DNA from: a virus
Taxonomy: Duplodnaviria > Caudoviricetes
Virus record (IMG/VR): IMGVR_UViG_3300032189_000003
Coordinates: 1 to 37,402 of that record
Direction: 5' to 3' (one strand)
DNA length: 37,402 nt
The notes under the pieces were generated by a model. It was given only the letters and a program-made list of their open reading frames with translations, was not told the origin of the DNA and ran no database searches. Made by a program: the position numbers and the translations under genes. Within the stretch, counting starts at the first letter, position 1; each line of letters starts with the position of its first letter. Shown one piece after another: positions 35,698-37,087 of the stretch.

Positions 35698-35722
35698 AAA
35701 AGGCCCGCCGGGGCGGGCCTTT
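35698..35722 (-). terminator. Rho-independent terminator closing acr / repeat-RNA transcript
   Basis: AAAGGCCCGCC-CC-GGCGGGCCTTTT on minus strand. Confidence 0.8.
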
Positions 35723-35724
35723 CT

Positions 35725-35789
35725 CTGCCTATTCGGCAGTTAGTGCATCACAAGAAGCATTATTTCTTAGCTGCCTATGCGGCAGTAAC
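35725..35789 (-). CRISPR. Type I-F CRISPR repeat-derived mini-array (two Cas6f hairpins, truncated spacer); crRNA mimic / Racr candidate
   Basis: Minus strand GTTACTGCCGCATAGGCAG CTAAGAAA TAATGCTTCTTGTGATGCACTAA CTGCCGAATAGGCAG vs canonical I-F repeat GTTCACTGCCGTATAGGCAGCTAAGAAA; no cas genes in window. Confidence 0.85.
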
Positions 35790-35810
35790 GACTTCATGAG
35801 ACGCGCAATG

Positions 35811-35839
35811 ATCAGAGCATTTATCGCAGGCGCTGTCAA
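35811..35839 (-). promoter_or_regulatory. Putative promoter for the repeat RNA
   Basis: TTGACA(35839-35834)-17 bp-TCTGAT(35816-35811) with TG extension. Confidence 0.45.
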
Positions 35840-35840
35840 A

Positions 35841-36527
35841 TCAGCTCGCCCGCTTCACGCCGAGCCGGTCGAGTAGGTAGTGCCAGGCTGCGAAACTGAT
35901 TTTCTGGCGATTCGCGGCAGAGTCCCCGGCTGTGTACTTTCGGAAATTCGTCGCGGACATTCCGAGCAGAGCGGCCGCAGCGGCGCCGCTTACGCCAGTA
36001 AACGACCCCTCGCCGACAACGTGGCGTAGCTCCCAACTGGTCGGCGGTCGCCACTCCTCGGCGTCATGTGTCAGTACCTCGCCAGGGAGGAGCCCTGTGA
36101 TCCATGCAAGTGGAGGGGCGCTGAGTTCGACCGCGAGCGCGGTGTACTCGTTCAGGGTGACAGGGAGCCCGAGCCGTGGTCTGCTGGCGGTCAGGAGCCA
36201 GTATGGGAATCGATCGTCTGGTATGCACCCGGACAACGCTTCTGGCAGTCGGCTCACGGCGACTCGCGCGAGCACTGCGTCACCATCCGAGTTCACCAGT
36301 TCCAGAACATCGGGCGCGTATCGGTCCCGGGCGTCGATGACGAACTCGGCGATGATGTCTGAGAACTCGTCCCTCACTTCCGACGAGGTGTAACTGTCCG
36401 GTAGGGTCTTTATCGCCATTTCCCGGGGCCCGTAGTATAGGGTCCACCGGTGATGCGGCAGGCCCCCGTAATGCAGTCCGCGGGCAGCCGGAGTGATCGA
36501 GAACGGCCCGATATGGATGGCGTTCAT
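35841..36527 (-). CDS. acrIF24: Anti-CRISPR AcrIF24 (Acr-Aca fusion with C-terminal HTH)
   Basis: 228 aa, MNAIHIGPFSITPAARGLHYGG...SGAAAAALLGMSATNFRKYT...FAAWHYLLDRLG recognised from recall; follows acrIF23. Confidence 0.92.
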   Translation of the reverse strand: MNAIHIGPFSITPAARGLHYGGLPHHRWTLYYGPREMAIKTLPDSYTSSEVRDEFSDIIAEFVIDARDRYAPDVLELVNSDGDAVLARVAVSRLPEALSGCIPDDRFPYWLLTASRPRLGLPVTLNEYTALAVELSAPPLAWITGLLPGEVLTHDAEEWRPPTSWELRHVVGEGSFTGVSGAAAAALLGMSATNFRKYTAGDSAANRQKISFAAWHYLLDRLGVKRAS

Positions 36528-37006
36528 CAGAACCCCCAGCGAGCGGTAAGCGCGTTGTACTCAGCAGCGATTTTGGCCACCTTGTCGGCTTGCCCGGCGG
36601 CCTGGGCAGAACGATGCTGGGCAAGCAAGGCCTTCTGCTGCATTACGAATCCGGCGATCTCCTGAGCACTAGCGTTGCGATTTTCGATCCAGAATTTGGC
36701 GGCAGTGAGCAGGCCGCTTGGATCGCAGGCCATTTCCGCCTGGTCTTGATTCATCTGCTGTACCTTCTCGGCGCGGATCTTCTCGGCCCACTCCTTCTGC
36801 CTGGCTGTGCCGGTGAGGGCGCGACCGCCAAAGGCCTTTGCCACGGCGCGAGCGTCTATGCCGCGCGGGCTCAAAGAGGCCCGGCGGGTGTTCGAGGCGT
36901 AGTCGTACGACGGGTCATAGGCGATCCCGGTTTCGAGGTCAATCCACTGCCCTTTCTGCTGGGCGGGAATGTCGGCGCTGTCGAGCCAGGTCTGGAAATT
37001 GGTCAT
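36527..37006 (-). CDS. acrIF23: Anti-CRISPR AcrIF23
   Basis: 159 aa from ATG 37006, MTNFQTWLDSADIP...LTGTARQKEWAEKIR...AAKFWIENR...ARWGF recognised from recall; GGAG RBS. Confidence 0.9.
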   Translation of the reverse strand: MTNFQTWLDSADIPAQQKGQWIDLETGIAYDPSYDYASNTRRASLSPRGIDARAVAKAFGGRALTGTARQKEWAEKIRAEKVQQMNQDQAEMACDPSGLLTAAKFWIENRNASAQEIAGFVMQQKALLAQHRSAQAAGQADKVAKIAAEYNALTARWGF

Positions 37007-37058: not shown

Positions 37059-37087
37059 ACTATATTAGCTCGAATCGAGCTATGCAA
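37059..37087 (-). promoter_or_regulatory. acr promoter with AcrIF24 operator (inverted repeat 37066-37082)
   Basis: TTGCAT-17-TATAGT; perfect IR TAGCTCGA-N-TCGAGCTA fills the spacer. Confidence 0.85.

Follow-up and report, generated by a model that had tools for sequence, protein, structure and literature searches.

The analysed stretch of DNA (the window, 37,402 nt or 37.4 kb) is a virus record in which host DNA is absent; terminase, portal, major head and tape-measure genes are encoded in it, and all of the near DNA matches to its last 7.4 kb (101/101) were Pseudomonas phages. Toward the end of the window, the minus strand carries the anti-CRISPR genes acrIF23 (match to PDB 7fia, E 2.4e-98) and acrIF24 (match to PDB 7elm, E 4.5e-153). 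The encoded AcrIF24 shows two differences from PDB 7elm and is 84% identical to AcrIF24 of phage IME307. An inverted repeat 5' of acrIF23 is near-identical to the oligonucleotide IR23-24 of PMC9001735, where AcrIF24 was found to engage five Cas7f subunits. A previous inspection of the letters alone (the sequence-only reading) had proposed that a truncated array of type I-F repeats behind these genes adds an RNA layer to two protein inhibitors, and this part of the proposal is borne out. The features of the locus are, in the direction of transcription:

37066 to 37082, minus strand: inverted repeat 5' of acrIF23, the AcrIF24 operator IR23-24
36527 to 37006, minus strand: acrIF23 (159 aa)
35841 to 36527, minus strand: acrIF24 (228 aa), Csy inhibitor and HTH autorepressor
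35811 to 35839, minus strand: candidate own promoter of the mini-array, with a consensus -35 and a weak -10 with TGn
35763 to 35789, minus strand: repeat-like element 1 (27 nt), with hairpin 35785-35771, 8-nt handle 35770-35763 and predicted Cas6f cut after 35771
35745 to 35762, minus strand: 18-nt spacer
35725 to 35744, minus strand: repeat-like element 2, a 5-nt flank and hairpin 35739-35725, with a predicted cut after 35725 and no handle behind
35725 to 35770, minus strand: mature 46-nt RNA of CracrIF1 type, the hairpin-to-hairpin product
35698 to 35722, minus strand: intrinsic-terminator-like G+C hairpin with U-run

Repeat 1 begins 51 nt behind the acrIF24 stop and is separated by 23 nt from the second, handle-less hairpin, behind which the terminator-like hairpin follows, all as the sequence-only reading had described them. 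Both repeat-like elements were recognised by sequence and folding, and the first also by Rfam, where it scored 33.8 bits against CRISPR-DR4 (E 6.7e-6, one deletion), just below the gathering score of 35. Two copies of the 15-nt hairpin pattern are present in the window, compared to 0.08 expected, and none of 100 shuffles reached two. Cuts 3' of each hairpin, which is the Cas6f site, would yield a 46-nt product composed of the 8-nt handle, the 18-nt spacer and a 20-nt 3' repeat. The terminator-like hairpin (fold -21.7 kcal/mol) is kept in all variants of the cassette described below; a simple terminator scan of the region did not list it. Rfam matches to TarB, istR and others were based on this terminator, scored far under the gathering thresholds and were rejected. 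The promoter that had been proposed upstream, TTGACA-17-TCTGAT, held in part: the sequence is present at 35839-35811 with a TGn motif before the -10, and its -35 is kept in 6/6 mobile-element variants, but the -10 has no A at position 2 and a promoter scan called none, this candidate included. The cassette is directly followed, on the minus strand (35472-34945), by an ORF of 175 aa whose N-terminus shows a prepilin-type motif (TIGR02532, E 1.1e-4); the related phages differ from one another in this region.

The mini-array is already known, and its discovery belongs to Shmakov 2023 (10.1101/2023.03.03.530964) and Liu et al. (10.1101/2024.10.29.618823); the element was published in phage IME307 in 2023 and later named CracrIF1. 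Shmakov et al. described a regulatory mini-array in phage vB_PaS_IME307 that, like the one in the window, lies directly behind acrIF23-acrIF24 and has a spacer 2 nt shorter than that of the host mini-array; this host counterpart is located between cas3 and cas8, and the target of the phage element lies upstream of cas8 (10.1101/2023.03.03.530964). The 46-mer of IME307 is letter-identical to that of the window, and the two elements differ only in the leader, the repeat-1 flank and one loop base, next to AcrIF24 proteins of the identity given above.

Liu et al. listed 221 candidates adjoining acrIF24, named the P. aeruginosa members CracrIF1 (46 nt) and CracrIF2 (49 nt), and reported their Csy-dependent maturation and the repression of P_creT1 and P_creT2 (10.1101/2024.10.29.618823). 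For CracrIF1, repression of P_creT1 was measured in a reporter with a seed mutation as control. CracrIF2 formed a complex with four Csy3 subunits that was refractory to AcrIF24 binding, and it rescued from CreT2; phenotypes in immunity, like the stoichiometry and the escape from AcrIF24, come from CracrIF2 only. The same study placed the escape from AcrIF24 at spacers shorter than about 22 nt and described that creT1 and csy1-4 share a promoter in CreTA1 loci. As published, CracrIF1 resembles the RNA of the window in being carried by a P. aeruginosa mobile element beside acrIF24, in its length of 46 nt, in mimicking the 48-nt CreA1, in a spacer of the 17-21-nt class and in targeting the creT1 promoter region; no difference was found, in a comparison by published description and not letter by letter. 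In terms of this class, the element is phage-encoded and away from any cas locus, has two repeat-like hairpins around one short spacer with the 5' handle on the first, and is linked to acrIF24.

Two neighbouring classes fit less well. RacrIF1 (Camara-Wilpert et al., PMC10651486), like the window RNA, is a phage-borne I-F hairpin that is cut by Cas6f and competes for Cas proteins; unlike it, RacrIF1 consists of one solitary repeat, acts through the piece upstream of the cut, and has neither spacer nor DNA target, whereas the window has two hairpins and a matched target. A Racr-like Cas6f-Cas7f complex lacking Cas5f and Cas8f could apply to the putative upstream cut piece only. A host CreA or CreR lies in the cas locus beside its own target, and no target was found within the window.

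A metagenome scan with the handle and seed gave 40 matches, 39 of them without hairpins and one (L010) with both. L010 is a type I-F locus in which cas3f (TIGR02562), csy1 (TIGR02564) and csy2 all scored above curated cut-offs. Its cas3f-csy1 intergenic region encodes a guide of 48 nt whose 20-nt spacer begins with the same 17 nt as the phage spacer; for a Cracr, 9 or more matches to a host CreA/CreR spacer at the PAM-proximal end are required. In the same intergenic region, upstream of a creT-type mini-ORF with proline codons and of csy1, a CC-PAM site (L010 2909-2928) agrees with the phage spacer in 16 of its 18 letters, positions 6 and 18 being the sole exceptions, and this match was equalled by none of 200 shuffles. 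In such complexes every sixth spacer position is flipped out, 18 included. Downstream of the site on the csy1 strand follow an SD sequence, a 15-nt ATG-AAA-CCT-CCG-stop mini-ORF (L010 2777-2763) and a G+C hairpin. To judge from the letters, the intergenic region carries the CreTA1 module described by Wang et al. (10.64898/2026.06.02.729485), whose CreA1 leaves positions 6 and 12 unpaired with the target. CreA1 and the phage RNA both have two degenerate repeats with a handle only on the first, and share the first 17 spacer nt and the target; in contrast to the phage copy, which has no adjacent target or toxin, CreA1 is host-encoded, 48 nt long and located in the cas locus beside its own toxin. 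Since L010 was retrieved via the guide itself, CreA1 already implied a target there. What stands independently of this is that the phage spacer is a copy of a guide from a cas locus, with 2 nt fewer.

Other features were observed around the site in L010. A second, weaker spacer match on the minus strand (2816-2799) lies between the main site and the creT mini-ORF, with 8 seed positions, 12/15 pairing positions and AG in place of CC. Also on the minus strand, a perfect -10 hexamer (2901-2896) is located at a distance of 7 nt from the PAM; a hexamer resembling a -35 (2877-2872), 32 nt from the PAM, sits on an inverted repeat and lacks a consensus -10 at 17 bp. A sample of 401 genomes from the family of G001 yielded no further CreTA1 copy; four of them gave CRISPR-repeat or terminator-length matches only.

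Besides the window, seven carriers of the cassette were compared: three viral contigs (L043-L045), the phages IME307 (L048) and LESphi3 (L049), and two P. aeruginosa plasmids (L050 and L051). The 46-mer was identical in four of the seven, had two changes in the repeat-2 flank in two (L044 and L049), and one inserted base, close to the spacer end, in L051. Among the six distinct variants, no column varied in the handle (0/8) or the spacer (0/18) and one in the stems (1/20, G-C to G-U), compared to 16 of 55 in the leader. The flanks diverge from the host copy, and handle, spacer and stems are retained. Conservation and covariation in acrIF24 neighbourhoods had been suggested as a check; the stems are conserved, but no two-sided compensatory change was seen in the two Cas6f hairpins of the six variants. 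As the homologues are about 90% identical, this conservation is shallow.

To follow the RNA, 24 public runs were listed and four, from four studies, were examined (X3, X8, X10, and X14). Run X14 contained a 99-nt contig made up of 27 non-genomic letters, the 46 nt corresponding to 35770-35725, and 26 non-genomic letters; the flanks resemble, and are presumably, sequencing adapters. Both ends of the insert lie at the predicted cuts, in contig data without strand and in one of the four runs, and the 2-3 letters that directly follow the 3' hairpin could belong to adapter or genome. The insert is the two-letter variant known from L044 and L049, not the host guide. The acr contig of X14 has 50 loose letters (30 seen) and ends at hairpin 1 if these are genomic. 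Contig depth in X14 was 116 vs 10-14 and is not read as expression level. Contigs of csy1 and cas3 occur in X14 too, joined across a 96-nt spacer from which the CreTA1 region (L010 2633-3080) is missing; the known target is therefore absent from that locus. In X3, X8, and X10 no cas contig was seen and contigs run through hairpin 1, in library types that differ and in hosts that are not proven to lack Cas. The pattern fits Cas6f-dependent processing, in one run whose prophage and cas locus are possibly in different cells. The sequence-only reading had predicted that Cas6f-type cuts release a 46-nt RNA bearing the authentic 5' handle, which agrees with these ends and with the 46-nt northern signal of CracrIF1 (10.1101/2024.10.29.618823).

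As the spacer has a CC-PAM target upstream of creT1 and csy1, the RNA would act as a transcriptional-repression guide that mimics host CreA1. We consider it quite probable that the element is a phage copy of this host guide, 2 nt shorter, whose 46-nt product loads a short Csy complex, escapes AcrIF24 and represses the creT1/csy1 promoter region; rather than being a decoy alone, it most likely acts as a targeted repressor guide and competes for Csy in addition. Transcription would proceed from the acr operon and/or the own promoter through to the terminator, and host Cas6f would cut 3' of both hairpins, leaving the handle, the 18-nt spacer and the 20-nt 3' repeat. Cas8f and Cas5f would then assemble on the handle and about four Cas7f over the spacer, as has been demonstrated for the 49-nt CracrIF2. 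An undersized complex had been foreseen from the sequence, and that of the sister RNA, complete with four Csy3 subunits, shows that such complexes form (10.1101/2024.10.29.618823). Since AcrIF24 needs five Cas7f, it would block full-length immune complexes and spare the short one, again as found for CracrIF2; by this analogy, the short spacer likely serves the escape from the phage's own AcrIF24. Bound to the CC-PAM site, the short complex would block creT1 and, as the promoter is shared, likely csy1-4 too. With AcrIF23 alongside, the short duplex would avoid cutting of the host chromosome. In hosts without the site, only competition with crRNAs for the Csy proteins would be left.

Against this mechanism stands that only one host locus with a target was retrieved (L010, one of the 40 metagenome matches), and this through the guide itself. 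Prophages with the mini-array have been reported to co-occur with PA14-like loci lacking a mini-array (10.1101/2023.03.03.530964) and the locus in X14 skips CreTA1, so that many hosts may lack the target. CreTA is present in about 26% of the I-F loci of P. aeruginosa and absent from about three quarters; Wang et al. nevertheless have AcrIF24 coexisting with CreTA, in tension with the exclusion seen by Shmakov et al. (10.64898/2026.06.02.729485).

The co-occurrence with PA14-like loci and the share of loci without CreTA speak for the reading originally given to the locus, that the RNA is mainly a target-independent decoy which soaks up Cas6f, Cas7f, Cas5f, and Cas8f in undersized complexes; the spacer match would then be only a trace of its CreA1 origin. 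The 46-nt species occurs in a run whose I-F locus skips the target region, and even a non-targeting crRNA lowers interference (PMC10651486). A pure decoy, however, does not need a spacer that stays free of substitutions in six variants while the leader varies, nor would it account for the reporter in which CracrIF1 repressed P_creT1 with the seed mutant as control (10.1101/2024.10.29.618823); its nearest precedent, RacrIF1, is a solitary repeat in a complex without Cas5f and Cas8f, unlike the anatomy seen here (PMC10651486). We therefore regard the decoy as a complete explanation as unlikely, and keep competition for Csy as a part of the targeted-repressor reading; what had been overlooked was the spacer target in the host I-F locus. 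In hosts without the target, the decoy model describes the sole available action. Thus the initial observation was correct and its interpretation incomplete.

That the cassette is a non-functional relic, captured from the cas locus of a host and travelling with acrIF24, appears highly improbable to us. The shallow conservation and the lack of compensatory change in the two hairpins would agree with a relic; the retention of handle, spacer and stems next to flanks that differ from the host copy, and the discrete RNA with predicted ends in X14, would not. The hairpin pair follows acrIF24 in all five viral acrIF24 loci and in the one genome locus. Three distant acrIF24 loci (52% protein identity) also argue against a relic, as they share the same architecture with other spacers and a hairpin spacing of 48-49 nt. 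In one of them (L047, 1411-1522) three hairpins lie 49 and 48 nt apart; the other two (L046 and L052) are without the first unit. A point against the targeted repressor, not the relic, is that the related 20-nt spacer of the Ectopseudomonas locus L052 has no exact CC-seed match in its own genome, with one-mismatch hits numbering 5 vs 14 for a control pattern, and upstream of its own csy1 no CC-PAM match was found, the best being 8 contiguous matches behind CT.

The two plasmids speak against a relic as well, as they keep the cassette without acrIF24. In L050 (965-1140; CP075774.1) and L051 (1490-1670; NZ_CP129996.1) the cassette is retained together with the final 28 nt of acrIF24 and with phage DNA downstream, and a gene annotated acrF1 lies about 370 nt past the terminator; L050 carries type IV secretion genes. 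The text passages of Liu et al. (10.1101/2024.10.29.618823) do not mention acrIF1; plasmid Cracrs are listed in the tables of that study. A search of plasmids for AcrIF24 homologues gave no Pseudomonas record among 32 matching records; the 32 homologues were less than 60% identical, and 29 of the records were from Burkholderia. That plasmids keep the cassette without acrIF24 points to selection on the RNA independently of AcrIF24, and perhaps to a promoter of its own.

Least probable of all is self-regulation or inter-phage competition with a guide that sends Csy to a phage promoter: viral mini-arrays are stated often to target other viruses (10.1101/2023.03.03.530964), but no CC-PAM match beyond 5 seed positions was found within the window, and 24 exact target-pattern matches in viral contigs had no creT mini-ORF, with a lone hairpin in one and less than 45% G+C in 23, as expected of chance matches. 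Another search gave seven viral matches, four of which were likewise low-G+C chance matches without hairpins.

The purpose of the targeted repression may differ between the two sister RNAs. CreTA1 toxicity is not triggered by AcrIF24 alone (Wang et al., 10.64898/2026.06.02.729485) and the 20-nt spacer of CreA1 is below the 22-nt threshold, which makes toxin rescue a weak reason for CracrIF1. We tentatively propose, as a possibility to which we give somewhat less than even weight, that CracrIF1 would be a portable shut-off of the Csy supply at the creT1/csy1-4 promoter in CreTA1 hosts and a decoy in PA14-type hosts, where the upstream cut piece would be a second, Racr-like decoy; it would have moved to conjugative-type plasmids as a partner of AcrIF1, not AcrIF24, and would not be a toxin rescuer like CracrIF2.

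What the present analysis adds to the published work is small: a public RNA run contains a 46-nt species whose ends are the predicted ones, two plasmids carry the cassette but no acrIF24, and rescue from the toxin does not readily account for the CreA1-type member. The mini-array is a real, selected counter-defence RNA in phages of a human pathogen, and it bears on how phages evade layered CRISPR and toxin-antitoxin immunity.
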